Shown here in pieces: positions 6,441-62,362 of a stretch of DNA of 64,000 bases. Origin of the DNA: Eledone cirrhosa. Taxonomy: Eukaryota. The stretch covers positions 281,294,001 through 281,358,000 of the forward strand of contig OZ024740.1 in NCBI GenBank assembly GCA_964016885.1, in the 5' to 3' direction. A model generated the notes under the pieces. That model was not told the origin of the DNA. It saw only the letters and a program-made list of their open reading frames with translations, and made no database searches. Positions within the stretch are counted from its first letter, which is position 1. Each line of letters begins with the position of its first letter. The translations under genes were made by a program, and so were the position numbers.

Positions 6441-8529
6441 ATGGACAAATACCCTTTGGACTACTCTGTAAAGAATATCCCAACACCTTCTAATACTCTC
6501 TACACGAAAATACTGATAGACAAAGTAGAGAAGGTTGTTAAAAGAATGAGATGGAAAGCTTTGATTCTCGATGGTCAATTTAACACGGATTCTACGGAAT
6601 ATTTTGACATCAAAACTCACAAATACCCGCAAAGAGTAAAAGATATGACCGCCTTTGAATTAGACCTAGTTAACCTTATCAACAACATCAATTTTCGTAA
6701 GTACTCTAACCCCTTTCAATCCAAATTATCTAATGATATTTCTACTTTCAAATCTTCTAATAATAAGTTCATCTTCTCAGATAAAACTAAAAACCTATAT
6801 GAAGTTAATAATAATTTACACGACCAACTATTAATAGATAATATCACCTCTAAATACCAAATAGCTAATATAAATACGTACCATAATATAAATAAGGAAG
6901 CTAAAGAATTAGCTGTTTCTTTAAAAATAGATAATAGGACAGAAAAACTTGCTAAACGTTCTGCGTATATCACCCTTAAAGATCATAAACCTGACTTTAT
7001 TAATCGCCCTAGTTGTAGATTAATCAACCCTGCTAAGACTGATATTGGTCTTGCCAGTAAAAAAATTTTAAATAAATTAAATACACACATTAGAAGTAAG
7101 TCTAAATTACTCCAATGGATAAATAGCTCTTCCGTAGTACATTGGTTTAATAATATTAAAAACAAAATCAGTTCTAGATTCACCCAATTTGATATCGTAG
7201 ATTTCTACCCATCTATTACTCAGACCCTTTTGGTGAAAGCTTTAAATTTCGCTAGAGGGTTCACTAATATCTCTGATATTGAAGAGGATGTAATCTTGCA
7301 TGCTAGGAACACTCTACTTTTTAATGATAATGACACTTGGGTAAAAATATCTAACCCAGAGAACCCATTCGATGTCTCAATGGGCTCTTATGACAGTGCC
7401 GAGGTTTGTGATCTGGTCGGCCTATTCCTCTTACATACACTTAAAGAAAAATTTCCTAACCATATTTTTGGGCTTTATCGCGATGATGGTCTAATACTTT
7501 CCCATACCACCATAGGCCATAACTTAGATAGATTAAGGAAAGACTTAATAAAAACCTTTGCTAGTTTTAATCTTAAAATTACTATTGACACTAACCTTTC
7601 CAACGTAGATTTCCTAGATATAAACCTAGATTTGCCTACTGCTTCTTATAAACCATACCATAAACCTAATGAAAACTTAAAATATATAAATAAAGGATCT
7701 TGCCATCCACCTATAGATTTTAAAAACCTTATCCCTAATATTAGCCGTAGGATCTCCACCCTCTCTTCATCAGAAGCTATTTTTAATAAGGCATCCCCCT
7801 ACTATAATAAAGCCCTCCAAAATAGCGGCTTTAGCGAACCGATTAAATACATACCTAACTACACTAACTCTATTAAACATAAAAATAATCTGGTTCACAC
7901 CCCCCTACTCTCTAGCAGTTAAAACTAATGTAGGCAAAAAATTCCTAGAACTCCTAGATAAACATTTCCCTAGAACACATAGATACTATAAGATCTTTAA
8001 CAGAAACTGTGTTAAAATTAGCTATTCCTGCGGTCCCCCTATTAAGTCCTATATCCTCAACAAAATATCACCTAGAGAAAATCAAACTTGCTCCTGTAGA
8101 ATCAAAAGTGAATGCCCATTACAAGGTAAATGCAACACCAAAGCCATTGTATATGCGGCTAATGTGACAACCATCAGCAACAACCATCCAGTCACCAGTG
8201 AACGATATGTGGGTATGACGCAAGACAGATTCAAAACGCGTTATTACTCACATGTCGCATCCTTTCGACATCCAGAAAAAAGATTTACAACAGCTCTGGC
8301 TAGCAGAATTTGGGATTTGAAAGACTAAGGCATCCAATATAAACTAGATTGGTCAATTTTGAACCAATCTAAAAAATATGCTAGAGGAACAAGAAAATGC
8401 ACGCTCTGCATAAACGAAAAATTTTGGATATTGCAAAATCTTAAATCACCAAAGACCTGCTTGAACACAAAGACGGAAATTTTTACCAGTTGCCCACACA
8501 TGAAATCACACCTGCTTTCCAGCTCATAA
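6441..8529 (+). pseudogene. PLE RT-GIY-YIG polyprotein (one frameshift near 7880, one TAA near 8326)
   Basis: RMRWKA, RLINPAK, FDIVDFYPSI, MGSYDSAEVCDLVG, LYRDDGL. In the shifted frame: KIIWFTPPYS...CSCRIKSECPLQGKC...IVY...RYVGMT...CTLCINEK...CPH. Confidence 0.92.
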
Positions 8530-13665: not shown

Positions 13666-16600
13666 TCTTAAACAACTCATTGAGAAATCTGACTCCTTTA
13701 TACGAAGACTTAGATGGCATGCCTTCCATTTCGATAGAAAATCAGATGAAAAAATAAATAAATCCAGTTACAACTTCGATATGATCTTCAAATCCAAGAA
13801 GAATTCACCTAACAACAAACTATTAATGGAATTTGAAAATGAAATAATATCGATTATACAAAACATCAAATTCAAGAAAAAACAATTTGTAGGCCAGGAA
13901 TACATTAAAGGCCTCAACAATAATATAGATAACCTTGAAAAAACTGAGAAGATCCTCGTAAAATCTGATAAAACTAACAATCTATATAGAATGCAAAAGG
14001 ACGAATACAATAATCTCATATTGAAAGAACCCAGGAAAAATTACAAAATAACAACTAATGAAGATCTTGAAACGTTAAATAGAGAAGCTTCTGAAATAAT
14101 TCATAAATTAGGCATCGAAAATAGGACTGAACCCTTTATACCTAGAAGACCGAAAATTAAACTGAAAGACCAGAAAAGAAACTTTGAAATAGAACTACCA
14201 GTCAGACTTATAGCACCATCTAAATCATACTTAGGCATAGTTAGTAAACATATATTAGATAGAATCATACCTCAACTTAAAGAAAAATCATACCTAAAAC
14301 TATGGAGGGGTACTAATGAGGTTATAGGTTGGTTCAATAACATAACATTTAAACATAACAAAAAATTCATTCAAATGGATATTGCAAATTACTACTCCCC
14401 TATTACTTTTATGTTACTTAATAAGGCTCTTATCTATGCATCTAAACATACAGATCTATGAAGTGAAGAAATGAATATCATTTTAACCGCACGGAAAACT
14501 TTAATTGAATTCAACAATCATCTCTGGACAAGAGCCGATAGAAAAATAATTTTGATATCACCATGGGATCATCTGACTCGGCGCAAATAACGGATCTTGT
14601 AGGGTTATTTATTAATATTACACTGCATAGAAAAATACCAGAGATGACCGGTGGTTTATATCGTGATGATATGGTGCTTTTAATTGAAAATCATAGTAAT
14701 TGTGAAATTAATAGGAAAAGAAAATCCATAATACAATTCTTCAATAACTACAACCTTAAGTTAGAAATAGTGAATAACTATAAAATCGTTAACTTTTTAG
14801 ACGTTACATTAAACCTTAGCACAGGGCTCTACTATCCATTCCATAAAATCAATGATAATCTAAATTATGTAAGTTTTAACTCTAATCATCTATTAAGAAC
14901 ACTATTGTCAATAGTGTCCAACAACGGATTTCACGCATCTCCGCTAATAAAAACATTTTTGATAATAAGGCTGAATATTATAATGAAGCTTTAAATAGAG
15001 CAGGGTATACAAATAAAATTAAATACATTGACAACAATATTAAGGCAAATTATTTTACTATTAATTGTAATAATAATAAGCAATTTAACTTAAACTCTAA
15101 AACTAACAAAAGAACTAGAAATATTATTTGGTATTCACGCCCATTCTCATTAAGCATTAAAATACCTTTAGCAAAGCTATTCTTTAAAGCACTAGACAAA
15201 TGTTTTCCTAAAGCCCACAGATACCACTCAATCTTTAACAGACATACCATAAAACTATCCTACTCTACTACTATGAACATAGCACAAAATGTAAATAGAA
15301 TTAATAATAGAAACTTAAATTTAAACCCTAACCAAAATAACCAAAATAGCAATCATAATATTTCTAGCAATATCCAACATAATAGTACCGTTCCGAGCAA
15401 AAGCAACTCCGCAAAATTAAATCAAATTATCCTTTACAAAATAAAAAGATAAAAACGTGGTCTACAAATGCACAGTTAAAACTTGTGAACATATATTTAA
15501 CTATGTCGGTGCCACTTCTACAGGATTTAAACTTCGCTGGAATAACCACAATTTTTCTTTCAGAAGAATTGATAAAAAATGTTCAACTTCTCTTTCAAAC
15601 CTGATATGGAACTTAAAATGCAATAATATAGACTATTCATTATCTTGGAAAACAGTTTCAGAAGCACCCGCGTACTGTAAAACACAGCTTTATCTAGATT
15701 CTGTAAATTGTGTATTGAAGAAAGATTTTCATATAATTAACTGTAAAAACTCTATTAATCTCAGAACGAATTTATTTAATTCTTGTAGACATCCCCAGAA
15801 TTCAACATTCAGAACTATATATAACTTATAATTATACTTATAATATTCCTATTAATCTCCATAACAATCTCATCTACTTTATTTTTAATATATTAATATC
15901 TCTAAATCATAATATCTCTAACATTTGCTGTACTTGCACTTTTTTTTAAATGTTCTTATAATATATATGTATATAATTCTAATTTTTTAATTTTTTAACT
16001 TTTAATTGTTTAATAATTTTTTTGAATAATTATTTTTTTAAAATAATTTTAATTTTTAATTTATAATTTAAAAAATTTTTTTTTATTTTTTTTTATTTTT
16101 ATTTTTTTTTTATTTTTTTACTTTTTAATTTTCTTAATTTCTTAATTCTTAAGTCTTTATTAAGTACAATGACACCCTCTAATAACCATTAACTGATTCT
16201 GGATAAATGTATCTTAAGCATACATACTTATTTTGACTAAATAGTCTCACATTAACGAATAAATTAAATCGGAGTTTATCTTTCCTTATCTTTCCTTTTC
16301 AATCATATAAATATTATTACTTAACTCCGTTAATTTAATTTTAAATCATTCTCAATTTTAAATACATATTTATTTACATAATATACCCATTTATTTATTT
16401 ATTTATTTATTTATCTACTTAAAACAGAACAAAAACATTCCTCGTAACTCATATTATAAACAAATTATAAACAACTAATAATTGTAAATTATCCTTTTAA
16501 TATAAATACACACACTATTAAAATATATACTTACATATATACATAGATAACTGTTCGAATATATTTCCCTCAAATTAACGTAATATGAGCTTTTAATTTA

Positions 16601-16991
16601 TCTTTGCTTTTTTCCTTCTTCTCTCTCTTTCTCTTACTATTTTTCCTTCTCCTCTTCTCTCTTTCTTACTATTTTTTATTTCTACTCTGTCTTACTATTA
16701 TATATTATATATCTAAACTCTCCATAGTCGTTTAAACTAACGGTTGTTTTTCAATTATTTACATATTCATATGCATAAGTTTAAAAAATAAGTTTGAAAA
16801 ATCCACTATACATTTCCACTATCCAGGGAATATTCAACTGATAAGGTATGATTTTCCTGGGTATGTCTCTATTTATAAAACAAACTTTGTATTTTATCTG
16901 AAGAAAGCGTACCAAAGTGTTTTGGTGCCCTTGAAATATATATAATAAAATAAATATGGTTTTATAAATATAGTTTCCATTCTTTTAATAT

Positions 16992-18309: not shown

Positions 18310-20579
18310 TTGGATAAATTGGAAAAAATCAGAAAAATTTAAGTATTTATATTAGTTGTAAGAAAGGAAGAAGAGAAGGGATAGCATATGACAGATGGCA
18401 ATTCAATTTGCTGGTAAACATGTCTATAGAAGGTTTTTAATGAGAATACAATGAGTATATGGCTTATTTTATCTAAATAAAAATTTTAATCTATATTTGA
18501 CCAATTGAACAATGGGCAGGGCTGGTCGTTTGGTGTAGTAGTATTAATACAGATATAAAGTGTCCAGTAAGGAAGAGAGAGATTTTCACTGTTACTGTAT
18601 AACAACAATGCTGGTAGCCTGCTGGTATATGCATTAGGGAATTGAATTAAGAAATCTCATTTTATCTATAGCAGTTTATATTAAATGGTAAAGAATAGAA
18701 GAATTGATAGAATTAAGATTAATAGAGAATGTTAATATGTATTTTGACAATCAAACGGAGATGGAGACAGGCGTTCAATCCTGGTAGCGTTTGTAATATG
18801 AAAATGTAGATTTCAAGCGATAGTTGCAGTATAACAATCGCTCTATTCTGTTATTTAATAACATATTTTTGGATTTCATAATACAAAATATTTCCATATT
18901 ACACAATTTACAAAATTCATGCGCGAAAATAACCAACAATTTAACCTAAAATGGGATATAATAGCAGCTGCTCCTTCATATTTCCAAGGACAGGAATTTT
19001 GTAAATTCTGTAACATGGAAATATTATATATATATATATAATATATATATATTTATTTATTAAAATAACAGATTAAAGTTTAAGCAAAGAATCGCTTTAA
19101 ACGCATACCCATTCTTTTCTTAACCCTTCAAGAAGGAATATGACGTCACTTTCAACTTATATCTGGAGTCTAAAAGATAACCACACCTAATATAAGTTAC
19201 ACTGGGAGATCTTAGCTAGGGCTAGAACGTATAACGGAAATAAAAGACCATGTGACCTCTGGCCGCTGAGGCCCTGGAAATACTCTACGCCAAAGACCAC
19301 ATTTTAAACAAAAATCTGCTTGTAAACATAAATTGCACAAAACGTTCCTGTATTACAACTCCACATTATACCCGAACGGATAGTACGAACTATACGCGGA
19401 TATTTTACGTCTTGATGGGGTAGCTAAGTATATGTTATATTTATACCATTACTTATTTGTATAGGTATGTATATATTACCCGTATGTTTTGTGAATGTAC
19501 GTATACTTTCTCGTACGTATATTTATTTGTATATGTTATGGCGTATATATTATATATACTGGTACTAGTGCTTATGGTTATGTGTATACGTGAGTTCTGC
19601 GTCCTTGTGAGTATGTAGGGTTCGTGTATATGTGTACTTTGTGTTTGGTTAACGTACGTCTGTGTACATATGTGTATTTACATGTAGGTATGAGTGTGAG
19701 CGCATTATATGCATATTTATGTGTGTATATTTATATACGTTTATATAATTATATGTATACATGCACACACACATACATATATATATATATTTTTTATATA
19801 TTTGTTATGTGTATTTGATGTATACGTACGTATGTGTGCGGGTACAGGCGTTACGTGGGTTCTGTATAATTACCTCTGTATTTATTTAGTTTATTCTTAA
19901 CTCTGAAGCCGAGAATCATTCGGTTTCCTACATAGAATTTTAGCCTACGACTCAGACCAACTCCAAGGAACTTCAAACATTACTGGTCACAACTCGCTAT
20001 ATTATACTAAAAGAAGAGAAATAAATAAAGAAATATATAGAAATATATATTTTTGTAAATAAGACAATAGAACCGTGTGGAAATGGAAGCACCAATTGAA
20101 ACATAAGTTTTAAATCTCCGAAGCCGTTTATGAAAGTATTGAAGCAGACAAGAAAACACACTTCGATCTTCCGACGTGGAAGAGGCTCCTATCAGAAGAA
20201 ACCGTCACCAAACCATCATTTTTCTCACCTGTTGTACAAACCTGGCTGGACACAGAACACGGTACAAACATTCTAATAGTTCTATAGAGTTATGAAATAA
20301 TACATATGAACAAGCCATAGATGACGGATATCATTAAGTAATGTCAGTTTCATGAGGAGATAAAACGCCTCCATCCTTTTGAAGGTAAAAAAAATGAGTA
20401 TAAATCCTGGAAAACTGTAAGTCCGGTATTGGAAAAAGAAGAAAAGAAAATCACAAGGGATTGACACTCCAAATTCACTATTTTCCTTTTACTTTGCTCC
20501 ACTTTTCCAATTAAATGACACGACGGTTCAGTTATATTCAAATATTGTAAGCGCGTCCATTGAGAATATCGTCTTTCAC

Positions 20580-21640: not shown

Positions 21641-22186
21641 GCCTCAACCTTTATAAGAAATAACACCGGGGTCGACAACCCGAATGTCCAAAATCCTATA
21701 GCTACCACCCAGACTTCTGCACTGCATTATAACCAGCAGACTAACACACAGGATAATTGTAACTGTAGAGCTAATAGAGCCTGCCCTTTAGATAAAAAAT
21801 GCCTAACCAAGGATATGATATACTCATGCACCGTCACAACTAGCAACTCTTCAGAAACTTATGTAGGCTCCACTTCTAACTGCTTCAAAATCAGATATAA
21901 TTCGCACATCCACTCGTTCAAAAAGCACAGTCTAGCCAACTCCACCTCACTATCTAGCTACATACACTATCTAAAAACTAAAAATAAACCTTACACACTC
22001 AAATGGGAAGTGATAGATAGCGCGACTTCGTACAAACCACCTAATAAATTTTGTAACCTCTATATACTAGAGACCAACAATATTATCTTCTCTAACCGGA
22101 ACCTACTTAACAAAAAATCTGAAGTGTTTGCAACTTGCCAGCACCGCTTCAGACATTCCTTCCAAAACTTTAAGCCCAATATATAG
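21640..22186 (+). mobile_element. Naiad-type PLE GIY-YIG 3' fragment
   Basis: CNCRANRACPLDKKC...MIYSC...YVGSTSNCFKIRYNSH...LLNKKSE...CQH. Confidence 0.85.
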
Positions 22187-54650: not shown

Positions 54651-54755
54651 AAAGTATGACCCCCGACAGCAGAGCTCAAGCCGTTTCGACGGCTATTTCT
54701 GTGTCCAGAAATACCCGTCGAAACGGCTTCAGCTCTGCTGTCGGGGTCATACTTT
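54651..54755. repeat. GC-rich ~50-bp-arm hairpin
   Basis: aaagtatgacccccgacagcagagctcaagccgtttcgacggctatttctg-tgtc-cagaaatacccgtcgaaacggcttcagctctgctgtcggggtcatacttt. Confidence 0.9.
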
Positions 54756-54759
54756 CTCA

Positions 54760-55611
<852 letters not shown>

Positions 55612-55787
55612 TAATATATGATATATATATATATATATATAATATATATAATATATGATATATATATATATAATATATATAATATATGATATATATATAT
55701 ATATATATATATATACATTATGAAGAGAGAAGAAACATTTAGATATAATTAGTAATAAAATGTATCATACCTAAACTGCTCCTAAAT

Positions 55788-55877
55788 TCCTCGACTACGT
55801 AGTTTCGTGGCATAAACAAAAACAATATATCATAAAGATATAGAGTCCTTGCGAGGTCTGCCGACTTATCAAGAGGA
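55788..55877 (-). ncRNA. Variant-core (U3-A8) hammerhead
   Basis: Mirror copy of 56516-56605. Confidence 0.72.
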
Positions 55878-56515
55878 TACCTCATTTTACTAGTCTCAAG
55901 AACGCGTCTACACGACGTGAGAAAGAATCCCAAAAGGCGGAGGGGGAGATAGTCACGCGATATAACGGTCGAGAAATAGAGCTAAGCCTCTTATAACCCC
56001 GAAGAAAATACCACGGAGGCGGAGGGGGTATCCATATCGAGGCCGTAGAAGAGGTGGTGAAGAAGGCGAGAAGTATGAGTAATGGAAGCTTTCCAGCTGT
56101 CCCCACACTTCAAAGATTGCTCGACCAGAGGGAGTTATTAACAATATATTTAGAAACACACAGATACATGCGGACACACACATATATACATGAATGCATC
56201 CGCACCCAACTGTGAGTTAAGGGTGCCAACTTCACCGATGTTGCTCAATGAATGACTGGAACAGACCAATTCAGTTGAACTAGACTGAACCAGTATCAGA
56301 GTTAAAAATACATTATGAAGAGAGAAGAAACATTTACACCTCTTCTACGGCCTCGATATGGATACCCCCTCCGCCTCCGTGGTATTTTCTTCGGGATTAT
56401 AAGAGGCTTAGCTCTATTTCTCGACCGTTATATCGCGTGACTATCTCCCCCTCCGCCTTTTGGGATTCTTACTCACGTCGTGTAGACGCGTTCTTGAGAC
56501 TAGTAAAATGAGGTA

Positions 56516-56605
56516 TCCTCTTGATAAGTCGGCAGACCTCGCAAGGACTCTATATCTTTATGATATATTGTTTTTGTTTATGCCACGAAACTACGTAGTC
56601 GAGGA
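56516..56605 (+). ncRNA. Variant-core (U3-A8) hammerhead
   Basis: tcctc-TTGATAA-gtcggca...tgccac-GAAA-ctacgtag-TC-gagga. Confidence 0.72.
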
Positions 56606-56838
56606 ATTTAGGAGCAGTTTAGGTATGATACATTTTATTACTAATTATATCTAAATGTTTCTTCTCTCTTCATAATGTATTTTTAACTCTGATACTGGTT
56701 CAGTCTAGTTCAACTGAATTGGTCTGTCCCAGTCATTCATTGAGCAACATCGGTGAAGTTGGCACCCTTAACTCACAGTTGGGTGCGGATGCATTCATGT
56801 ATATATGTGTGTGTCCGCATGTATCTGTGTGTTTCTAA

Positions 56839-56890
<52 letters not shown>

Positions 56891-57002
56891 GATATTTGAT
56901 ATATAATATATAATATATGATATATATATATATAATATATGATATGTTGATTTAAAACTGCACTATTCACAAGTGTGTTTTAACCTTCATATCATATCTC
57001 CC

Positions 57003-57073
57003 TATTTTATCTGACGAAAACGCAAATGTTATTGCATGATGGTATTTGTTTTTGAAATGCGCATAATAAAATA
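57003..57073 (+). ncRNA. Type I hammerhead ribozyme
   Basis: tattttat-CTGACGA-aaacgcaaatg...tatttgttttt-GAAA-tgcgca-TA-ataaaata. Confidence 0.85.
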
Positions 57074-57150
57074 TATGGAACTCTTTTAACCATCTTTTGA
57101 TCTTATATATTATAATATATATATATATATATAAACTTAGCTGAGAATAG

Positions 57151-57229
57151 ACTCCCTGATGACGTAAGGTTTCTCTATAGTTATTACGTAACTATAGTTA
57201 TCCCCTTACAGAAACTAATTAGTTGGAGT
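57151..57229 (+). ncRNA. Type I hammerhead ribozyme with long stem II
   Basis: actcc-CTGATGA-cgtaagg...ctatagtta(ttacg)taactatag...ccttaca-GAAA-ctaattag-TT-ggagt. Confidence 0.85.
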
Positions 57230-57654
57230 GAAATTTTAGTAAGTAAGTCAATTTTCATAACTTTCTTATTTACGTCTTTCATATACTTGTTCTGCATTCC
57301 CCTGCATAGAACCACAAAGTTACTAAGACAAAACATATATATCTGCTAGCATAGGTATGCATCGGTATACATATGTCGGTAGATATATTAATTCTTTATA
57401 ATTATCTTCAAATTATTTGTTGATCAAAATTTGCCAAATTACTACTGTGACTTATAGTAGTAGCTAGGCTCTGTCTTAATAGCACTCCCACTCCAAGCTG
57501 GTTAACCTCAGTGTCACGTGATTGATTCTTTTGAATTTGCCACTTGACCAAGAAGGCAGTGAATTTTTCAATGGCTTGGAATCTAGCGCAGCTCGCTTTT
57601 TTCCATCCACTGAATTATTTTTATATAAGTTCCCAGTGTCCCCGCATTGCCTGG

Positions 57655-59625
57655 AAACTAACAAACTGCATAATAGGCAGTATGGATGTTGTGTCCCTGT
57701 ATCCATCTATTGACGTGGATTTTGCTGTGGAGAAATGCGTAGAAATGATCAGTGAGAGCAAGGTTGAGTTCCGTGGGATTGATACCAGTGAGCTGGGACT
57801 CCTACTTAAGCTTACCTATAGTAATAATTACCTAGACACATATGACCTTAGCAACCTGTGCCCTACAAGACCAGCAAGAGGCAGACCACCTACCATTACC
57901 TCAATGGCCAAGAAAACCCACACAGATAGATGGAACGGGTGGACCAGAGCCATACGGACACCCGAAAACCACGATGAACTGAAGAAAATGATTGCACATG
58001 CGGTAGGGGCCAGCATAAAACTAACCCTTAAGGAACATATGTTCAAATTTAATGGAAAAACATATGCCCAAGAGGAAGGAGCAGCCATTGGTGTTAGCAT
58101 TGCAGGCGACATAGCTAACTTATTCATGGTATGGTGGGACAGTAGACTTAAACTTAAACTTAAAGAACAATTAGAAGACCCCTTAACCCTGATAATGTAC
58201 TCCCGCTACGTAGATGATATAAACATCGTAGTTAAGACACCCCCACTAGAGAACAGTCAGGAACTAGAGAAAAACACAATGGAAAGCATCCAGCAAATAG
58301 CAAACTCCATCCACCAGAGCATTAGAGTTACTATAGACTACCCAAGTAAACACCCCAACCATCGATTAACTGTACTAGACACAGAGCTCTGGTTAGATAC
58401 CATTAACAACAAAAAACAAATCCTCCATTCCCATTATGCCAAACCCATGACTTCCAAACATCTGATCCACCGAAACTCGGCCGTTTCGGACCATACCAAA
58501 ATCAACATACTGATTACGGATTTGGTACGGGTGATGAGAAATGTGTCCCGCATGTGCAACCCCGAAGAACTAGAGAGACACATACAACACTTCATCCACC
58601 GTATGCAGTTCTCTGGCTACAATCAGAGAGATAAAATCAGAGTGTATAGAGGAGCCAGAGCCAAATGGGAAAAAATGGTAAATAATGACATAAATGGGAC
58701 CTGCCCCTTGTATAGGAGCAAATTTTGGAATAGAATAGAAATAACTAGGAACAAGGCTAATAGAATAAACTCATAGTATGATAGTAATAAATACCAGAGT
58801 GTAATGTTCATCGATACAACCCCTAGAGGTGAATTAGCTTACAAATTTAGAAGGGCCCTAAATAAACATAAACTCAATATTAAGATAGTAGAAAGACCAG
58901 GTACCTCCGTAAAAACACTTATTAGCAAGACATACCCTTTTCAAAGACCCTCATGTATAGATAAGAAATGTATAACCTGTAAAATAAGCCCCCATATTAA
59001 CTGTAAAACTAGAAATGTAGTGTATAGCATAAGATGTACTGAAGGACAATGTAGAGACAAAAATATAGTGTACATAGGTGAGACAGCTCGTAGTGTAGGG
59101 GAACGGATAAATGAACACTGGCGAGACCTTCAAGATAATAAAGAATCATCTGTACTCTACCAACATGCTAAAATAGAACACAAGGGTAAATTAGAGAACA
59201 TAGAAATAAAAATAGAATCTACACACAGAAAAGACGCAATGTTTAGACAAATTACAGAGGCAATAAACATAAAAGAATTACAACCAAAATTAAATAGAAA
59301 ATATGAGTGGAACAGCAACATCACAACTTACAATTAAGGACAAAATGAAAACACACACACATAGAACAAACAACCAACCAGTAACATGTAAATAAACAAA
59401 TAAATAAATGAACATAAACACACACAGACACCCGGATGTGGCGCATGCGCAGACTGAGCACACAACACACACACAGAAACAAAATGGCGTAGGACAGAAC
59501 AAAGGAGAGGCACAGAAACAAAGAAAGGAATCCCCAGTCACTGAAGAGGTCACAGAGTGTGTGACGAAAGAACTATGACTATATATAAACAACTATCTGG
59601 TTGTGGAACCAACCAACCAACCAGA
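57655..59625 (+). mobile_element. 5'-truncated Penelope-like element (RT + GIY-YIG, single TAG at 58774)
   Basis: GSMDVVSLYPSI, QEEGAAIGVSIAG..ANLFMVWWD, RYVDD, VLD. In-frame continuation NS*YDSNKYQSVMF to CKTRNVVY...YIGETARSVGERINEH...RQITEA...LNRKYE. Confidence 0.92.
59536..59580 (+). ncRNA. Hammerhead at PLE 3' end
   Basis: agtca-CTGAAGA-ggtcac(agagtgt)gtgac-GAAA-g(aa)c-TA-tgact. Confidence 0.85.
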
Positions 59626-59857
59626 AATTTATAAATTTATAAATTTATAAATTTATTATAAATTTATTATAATAAATTGAAGTGAAAGCTACTGGTGGGT
59701 GTGTTTCCTATTGGCAACATGACCCTCCCAAAGTATAACAATATCGGTTTCAACACACGATTTCAGATAAAGAATCTTGCTAAACAAATTCAGAAACTAA
59801 ATATATATATATATATATATATTATTATTATGTAATAAACAACATAAGGCAATTATT

Positions 59858-61515: not shown

Positions 61516-62362
61516 CATACATACACACATACACACACATACATATACACACATACATACACATATATATACATACACAAACATATACGTACACATATAC
61601 ATATATACACACAAAAATACATACACATACACATAGGTATGTGAAGGGCAAAACAAAAAGAATATATGGGGTGGGGGGCCTAGAGGAGGTAAAAATATAA
61701 AGGGAGGTAAGGGGGAAAAAAATATATTTTTTAAATACAAGAGTACAGAAGGTAGAAGCAGCAAAATAAAAGCCGTAGCAAAAGTAAAGAGCAGAGAAGG
61801 AGTTCAAGGCGGTTGATTTATCGTAGGAGTGTCAATCCAGTTACAGATCAGATGCGATTTCAGATGAGGACAGCATCTGAAGATCTCAGTCTTAGAGTTA
61901 AGGCAAGCGGAAGTGTCTCTCAAGTTTAGCAAAATCCTATACTTTTCTGTGGTACACAAAGAACAATTCTTTGTGCCCCTTTGGTACTCCCTCGAATGGT
62001 CTAATATAGACCAATCAATAGAGTACGGGATATTACTATCCTTGAGATCCCATACCTTACTTGCGAGGGCCGTTGATGTTCGTTTATCTGAGTGTTTAAA
62101 AGAAGCGACATGTGAGTAAAATCTGGTTTTAAACCTGTCCTGGGTCATACCGACATATCGCTCGCTTCTGGCTGGCTGGTTGTTGATAACTGGCGTTATT
62201 TTAGCCTCATAAACGACAGATTTTGTTTTACATTTACCCTGCAATGGGCATTCATCCGGCTTCCTGCAACTGCATCCTGGATTTATCCTCGTACGGTTTG
62301 AACTGGTGATTTTGGATTTCATGGATGGACAACAAGAGTAGCTGATCTTAACTACATTCCTA

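Follow-up and report, generated by a model that had tools for sequence, protein, structure and literature searches.

A young hammerhead retrozyme of Eledone cirrhosa whose inverted insertions pair two unlike fixed ends: a case for two probable primings on one RNA that is itself probably circular

Published work already covers non-LTR retrozymes, the circular RNAs derived from them and the connection of these elements with the repeats of Penelope-like elements (PLEs) (PMC7229834; bioRxiv 10.64898/2026.07.22.740005), and insertion templated by a circle was proposed in 2014. The 595-nt unit of Eledone cirrhosa described here resembles the metazoan non-LTR retrozymes of these two sources in being a tandem unit that codes for no protein and bears one type I hammerhead, in its thousands of dispersed copies, in its low GC content and in sharing its genome with PLEs. 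Its length compares with RNAs of 170–400 nt (PMC7229834) and with a consensus range of 51–972 bp (bioRxiv 10.64898/2026.07.22.740005). It differs in its U3-A8 hammerhead core with a long stem II, and in its two fixed ends and frequent inversions, which the accessible text of these sources does not describe; the circle, moreover, is here a predicted one. Of nine retrozyme dimers tested from Xenopus, eight did not cleave (bioRxiv 10.64898/2026.07.22.740005).

Insertions of EN+ PLEs carry an inverted 5'-truncated copy and a tail of 30–40 bp, often at one end only (PMC8557442, PMC3846280). The 595-nt unit shares with these elements the head-to-head inversion, the one-end tail, the 5' truncation and the preference for (TA)n. 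In contrast to what the accessible text of these papers reports, it has no ORF and a tail of 165 nt, the one-end rule was counted (71 to at most 4), and the two arms share a haplotype. The Poseidon PLE of Anolis has been studied in vitro, where two reverse transcriptase (RT) start sites bound the tail, both target strands are cut and extended, and a dimer is predicted (PMC11167929). Ribozyme cleavage was unneeded in that system, unprocessed RNA being the main substrate (PMC11167929). Poseidon and the 595-nt unit are alike in that the RT has two internal start sites, one on either side of a tail downstream of the hammerhead, and in an AT-rich target; extension of both target strands is likewise proposed here for the unit. 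The start sites of Poseidon, as far as the accessible text goes, show no strand preference and no target homology, whereas those of the 595-nt unit have an ATAT-like match to the target and serve one per strand. Similarly, no Poseidon RNA is described there as ending at the ribozyme site (PMC11167929), whereas a small excess of copies of the 595-nt unit starts at it.

The window, by which we mean the whole 64,000-nt stretch of DNA that was analysed (source genome 3.0 Gb), contains an insertion of this unit with the features given below. In the circle numbering of the 595-nt unit, c1 is the base right after the ribozyme GTC.

55713-56845, no strand: whole insertion, 1,133 bp, two arms of the 595-nt unit placed 5' to 5' with their 3' ends outward, in (TA)n
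55713-56336, minus strand: arm 1, 624 nt, from c52 round to c80; its outer end is site S ('short') at 55713
56337-56845, plus strand: arm 2, 509 nt, from c332 to c245; its outer end is site T ('tail') at 56845
56336-56337, no strand: inversion junction, c52 against c332, blunt, with microhomology absent
56681-56845, plus strand: the 'tail' of 165 nt (c81-c245) that separates the two fixed ends
56143-56307, minus strand: internal read-through of the same 165-nt tail, within arm 1
55560-55712, no strand: left (TA)n target flank, start approximate
56846-56945, no strand: right (TA)n target flank, end approximate
56516-56605, plus strand: type I hammerhead of arm 2, by motif scan; predicted cleavage after GTC 56598-56600
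55877-55788, minus strand: type I hammerhead of arm 1, by motif scan; predicted cleavage between 55793 and 55792

Comparison of the window with itself gave two inverted pairs, 55713-56056 / 56680-56337 (344 nt, 2 mismatches) and 56143-56336 / 56845-56652 (194 nt, 1 mismatch), and a direct repeat of 29 nt at a spacing of 595 nt (55713-55741 / 56308-56336). This agrees with an earlier sequence-only reading, which had described a 595-nt unit with a short terminal redundancy and an inverted copy. Its claim of a young insertion is supported by the comparison of the arms, which differ at 3 positions in 538 nt, and the motif scan placed the GTC of a type I hammerhead at 56598-56600, where a GUC site had been proposed. 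The right end needs correction from 56843 to 56845. The inverted copy indeed reads through the supposed end-start junction, but this junction, 56680/56681, is a fixed insertion end that lies 80 nt downstream of the ribozyme site, and not the ribozyme site itself.

The insert has stops in all six frames, and the unit is therefore non-coding. It lacks the ORF with RT and GIY-YIG endonuclease by which an autonomous PLE is recognised, and no similarity to the PLE proteins of the window was found. The unit shows the sequence characters of a non-LTR retrozyme: one hammerhead per unit, dispersed high-copy tandem repeats, no coding and, judged from its closure on itself, no LTR-type organisation. That a retrozyme-type hammerhead unit had inserted in the manner of a PLE, as was claimed from the sequence, is borne out by the non-coding unit, the fixed 3' ends, the free 5' ends and the inversion. 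The window insertion is a real, young retrozyme insertion, and a PLE almost certainly moved it.

An assembly artefact was considered as the source of the inversion and is excluded as a general cause, because the arrangement recurs at dozens of loci and the inner junction differs from one locus to the next. Contigs of four sequencing runs, of unrecorded type, cover the unit over 55745-56790 and are uninformative on expression. In one of the four runs, loose ends of TA runs are present at both fixed sites, and none of these contigs spans the inversion junction of the window.

The predicted hammerhead consists of a 5-bp stem I, the core TTGATAA, a long stem II, GAAA and a short palindromic stem III. 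In the core, U3-A8 replaces C3-G8, a variant known from a Schistosoma PLE ribozyme (PMC4209133). The Rfam scan gave no match to a hammerhead family, and the ribozyme on its own folded no better than shuffles (z -1.08); the prediction rests on the exact motif and its conservation. The motif is present in every unit, with core and stems nearly invariant, and its 5' half is also kept in a subfamily of 72–78% identity whose copies were picked by the 3' half only. Copies that start at the predicted cleavage site after letters other than TC number 25 (23 once two local duplicates are removed), against 7, 8 and 0 at three other sites that served as controls for 5' starts; the 0 of the third control is unexplained. 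This small excess hints that cleavage occurs, and a minority of copies may derive from cut linear RNA. In six inversions (L134, L135, L139, L142, L145, L148) one arm starts from the cleavage site and the other within ~20 nt of it, which looks like run-off of both cDNAs at the 5' terminus of a linear RNA that had been cut.

A 24-mer that spans this site (the ribozyme 3' half) has 7,444 exact matches genome-wide and its reversed control 0; the matching copies are dispersed over many contigs in both orientations. The unit stands head to tail in short dispersed arrays, with periods of ~585–595 nt and up to 4.9 units per arm. Of 220 arms mapped, in a sampling that favours long arms, 111 are longer than one unit and the longest measures 2,906 nt. 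The unit closes on itself: these 111 arms exceed a whole unit without entering other sequence. The older subfamily (loci L166-L195; 72–78% identical) has the same ribozyme core, the same two ends and the same multi-lap layout, and therefore the arrangement persisted while the remainder diverged. Target-site duplications, which in non-LTR retrozymes exceed 4 bp when present, are obscured by (TA)n at most loci; duplication-like flanks were seen by eye in L013 and L090. At many loci (e.g. L032, L081, L085, L110, L130) several PLE-type families are stacked end to end in one (TA)n tract.

Insertions were sampled in four sets. Set A comprises the 39 best-scoring insertions of a DNA search that gave 1,111 candidates, 39 of which were scored, with an identity of ~99%. 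Set B holds 49 insertions with the 24-mer from C1, 0–54 Mb, and set C holds 23 loci chosen for a start at the cleavage site. Set D consists of 60 loci from end lists, 16 of them known S-T pairs (D1) and 44 found by the S end alone (D2). The pooled count of ends leaves out set C, set D1 and the control loci L151-L165.

Our results show that the 3' (outer) ends of the arms occupy one of two positions separated by 165 nt, site S at c74-82 and site T at c240-252; at both, the last letters are ATAT-like and continue into the flanking (TA)n. The 5' (inner) ends are scattered round the circle. Variable start points on one circle had been expected from the sequence; instead, the outer ends are fixed at these two sites, and only the inner ends vary. 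By the sequence-only reading's own criterion, fixed ends speak against its proposal, yet they are exactly what two RT start sites predict. Genome-wide, the S end followed by TA has 2,485 exact matches, and the T end followed by TA has 1,033 on the forward strand, the reverse count being inflated by gap variants. Single-arm insertions end at S in 18 cases, at T in 16 and elsewhere in 1 (n = 35, sets A and B).

Inverted insertions are oriented tails-out, and they almost always pair one S end with one T end. This was the case in 26 of 27 inversions of set A, in 21 of 26 of set B and in 24 of 26 of set D2. Pooled, 71 inversions have S and T ends against at most 4 with alike ends (p 3e-17 under independent end choice); four more have one end at neither fixed site. 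Of the 4 scored as alike, three include either an adjacent older copy or a simple-repeat look-alike; the fourth, L013, is a genuine inversion with two S ends. Matches of 30–70 nt to c195-c245 at <85% are such look-alikes and were filtered or discounted. Position lists for C1, 0–73 Mb, which overlap with set B, gave the same picture: all 31 tails-out pairs within 6 kb join an S to a T end. Because inverted insertions pair unlike ends, the inversion most likely reflects two primings and not a strand switch. That both primings took place on one RNA is a reading that we hold with good confidence.

L1 twin priming is alike in that two primers on one RNA yield an inverted insertion. The two parts of such an L1 insertion are adjacent pieces of one linear RNA. 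In contrast, the arms of the 595-nt unit overlap and are often longer than one lap, and both of its priming sites are fixed. Inverted copies, the one-sided tail, two RT start sites and retrozymes as such are already published. Within the literature covered (mainly open-access main texts), we found neither obligatory unlike-end pairing as a counted rule, nor a report of one haplotype per inverted insertion, nor a retrozyme with start sites 165 nt apart.

The template was analysed in 133 of 148 insertions, after 15 old, complex or duplicated ones had been dropped. Divergence between units is 0.41% when they stand in one arm, 0.36% when they stand in the two arms of one insertion and 1.8% between insertions. 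At 19 common family variants the arms disagree in 4 of 120 cases, and among variants that segregate among at least three units 138 of 142 are singletons. Another 31 variants are private to one sampled insertion, that is, among the 133 sampled of several thousand, and fixed in all of its units; 11 of these involve three or more units, and 19 extend across both arms. All laps and both arms thus come from one haplotype, and the later differences are mostly private. The stretch c588-c7, which holds the ribozyme site, has no indel in ~198 units (8 of 88 loci dropped beforehand), and in the window both arms cross this site.

One haplotype per insertion and a ribozyme site crossed without indels favour a circular template, which we consider probable. 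A cut linear monomer was rejected as the main template: 7,444 copies span the cleavage site and 25 start there, so that nearly all cDNAs reaching the site pass through it. A monomer circle would explain why the units are homogeneous, why arms extend over several laps, why the junction is clean and why each start site is used once. An alternative explanation might be that the template was an uncut linear multimer from a genomic tandem array, with the same two primings and no circle involved. Arrays of 3–5 units exist as possible sources, and in vitro the PLE RT starts internally and can dispense with ribozyme cleavage (PMC11167929). The low divergence within arrays would also be compatible with it, since a young homogeneous master would give much the same variants. 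However, S and T would each occur several times along a multimer, which predicts that alike ends are not rare, and in fact they are. Differences between units are not inherited either: 2 segregating sites are shared in just 3 pairs of loci, which are made up of the same three loci, and in the pair inspected the shared sites are one adjacent dinucleotide in a TG-rich stretch. Parental inversion junctions, too, are not inherited. Furthermore, linear copying with 5' truncation should only shorten arrays, yet the 72–78% identical subfamily is also multi-lap. We therefore regard the uncut multimer as unlikely. The earlier proposal of a circular or multimeric RNA holds in so far as the template was more than one linear monomer; in the choice between the two, the sequence variation favours the circle.

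The inner junctions of the inversions arise anew. Two of 3,240 junction pairs lie within 3 nt of each other, where 0.9 is expected, and the window junction, c52/c332, is unmatched by any other of the 81 junctions examined. Of these, 55 were measurable: 35 are blunt or overlapping and 20 have extra or unmatched letters, while an overlap of at least 3 nt occurs in 11, compared to 4.7% at random. In the first loci, the offset between the 5' ends of the two arms was near 0 in 7 of 44 cases and between +120 and +170 in 11 of 44. Fixed beforehand as a test, these clusters failed in the new loci (1/37 and 4/37). A model in which the junction forms by 'collision of two RTs' was dropped, as the clusters did not recur.

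The sequence-only reading had suggested a strand switch of one cDNA. Such a cDNA might fold back or switch strand and copy itself, by self-priming as proposed for the rotifer Penelope. In line with this, both arms start at the same base in 3 of 81 junctions and lie within 15 nt in 8, and palindromes have been reported at inverted junctions (PMC3846280). However, only 9 of the 81 junctions have a geometry in which the shorter arm could have been copied from the longer, and in the window neither arm is contained in the other. The excess of near-symmetric junctions is absent from the new loci (1/37). Moreover, fold-back supplies no reason for the unlike ends, which point to separate primings. As a general route it is largely refuted and has very little probability, although a few copies may have arisen by it.

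Two PLE families of this genome are abundant and young and have long open frames, and both show two ends in (TA)n. They are represented in the window as follows.

57653 to ~59804, plus strand: family A, a 5'-truncated PLE with RT and GIY-YIG by Pfam, and one stop between two frames
~59810 to beyond 64000 (into locus L256), no strand: family B, a large tails-out inversion with its junction near 62351

The copy of family A has a hammerhead in its 3' region, near 59530-59580, and alternative ends at 59744 and ~59804. This family is very abundant and young (38,934 first-look candidates), with frames of up to 863 aa or more and a cysteine motif that we take to be Neptune-like. Its ends in (TA)n are S-like in 18 cases and T-like in 19, with 6 unlike pairs and 1 alike among 10. 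The arms of the family B inversion are 98% identical, and the long 3' region, rich in TG, bears two hammerheads; the short end is on the left and a ~75-nt tail on the right. The frames of this family measure 714 aa. Both families are candidate mobilisers of the 595-nt unit. The 3' region of family A has no significant DNA similarity to the unit, and family B was compared with it by eye; among the PLE proteins of the window and in the 3' region of family A, we found no autonomous PLE with sequence in common with the unit. A relaxed ribozyme pattern gave 158 matches, and the 30 of these loci that were read, mostly older subfamily or junction copies, include none joined to a PLE ORF.

The window also contains other elements. 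At 57135-57659 (plus strand) lies a second non-coding hammerhead unit of ~525 nt, with the core CTGATGA near 57157 and ends at 57285 and 57400. It is tandem in other loci and forms unlike-end inversions in L045 and L079, and is probably another retrozyme family. A small hammerhead-bearing element is found at 56950-57133 and 16890-16952, with relatives in L017, L034, L133 and L163, inverted in L017. The near-perfect 105-nt hairpin at 54651-54755, between two (TA)n tracts, gave weak miRNA-family matches only and may mark where the arms of a further small inverted insertion meet. Other PLE families are represented by GIY-YIG fragments at 8095-8505, 15445-15792, 19101-19259 and 21764-22171.

It is highly improbable that the 595-nt unit, instead of being an independently mobile retrozyme, is only the pLTR (3' stump) left by an autonomous PLE, or else a satellite spread via unequal crossing-over. 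Retrozymes do resemble PLE pLTRs and the layout is that of PLE ends, but the unit is self-closing, with 111 of 220 arms running beyond one unit without other sequence, and has no similarity to the PLE proteins of the window. Its copies form short arrays that have target-primed ends and are scattered over many contigs in either orientation, and no ORF-bearing PLE with a repeat >95% identical to it was found in the fetched loci, a small part of the copies.

Overall, a young retrozyme inserted by a PLE RT-endonuclease through two primings, probably on a circular RNA, is the best explanation, and one that we favour with some confidence. Tandem copies would be transcribed and would then self-cleave, probably as dimers because stem III is short and palindromic, and the cleaved RNA would be ligated into a circle. 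A PLE protein dimer would bind this circle, and the borrowed Penelope-like RT-endonuclease would nick both (TA)n strands. Each half of the dimer would prime at its own site, S or T, where ATAT would pair with the target. Both RTs would travel round the template and might halt anywhere, after which the two cDNA ends would be joined bluntly or via short homology; a single surviving cDNA would give a single-arm insertion. The specific proposal of a PLE dimer with one subunit per fixed start site, reverse-transcribing a single circle twice in rolling-circle mode, once from each of the two target strands, is tentative, and we put it forward as a possibility somewhat short of probable.

The kind of element is already known, and the main yield of our analysis is the two-end rule together with the one-template evidence. 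The accessible text of two sources calls open the questions on which these results bear, namely the origin of tandem and inverted PLE insertions with a one-sided tail (PMC8557442) and the mobilisation of non-LTR retrozymes (bioRxiv 10.64898/2026.07.22.740005). Unlike ends per inversion, one template per insertion and multi-lap copying through the ribozyme site place countable constraints on both. Being short and defined, the RNA of the 595-nt unit also suits the in vitro assay that already exists for a PLE, which makes the asymmetry of the dimer and the choice between circular and linear templates testable. If a dimer does act on one circle, the 'tail' and the inverted repeat of PLEs would be the products of one event, and the 595-nt circle would be a minimal natural substrate that recorded this event thousands of times.
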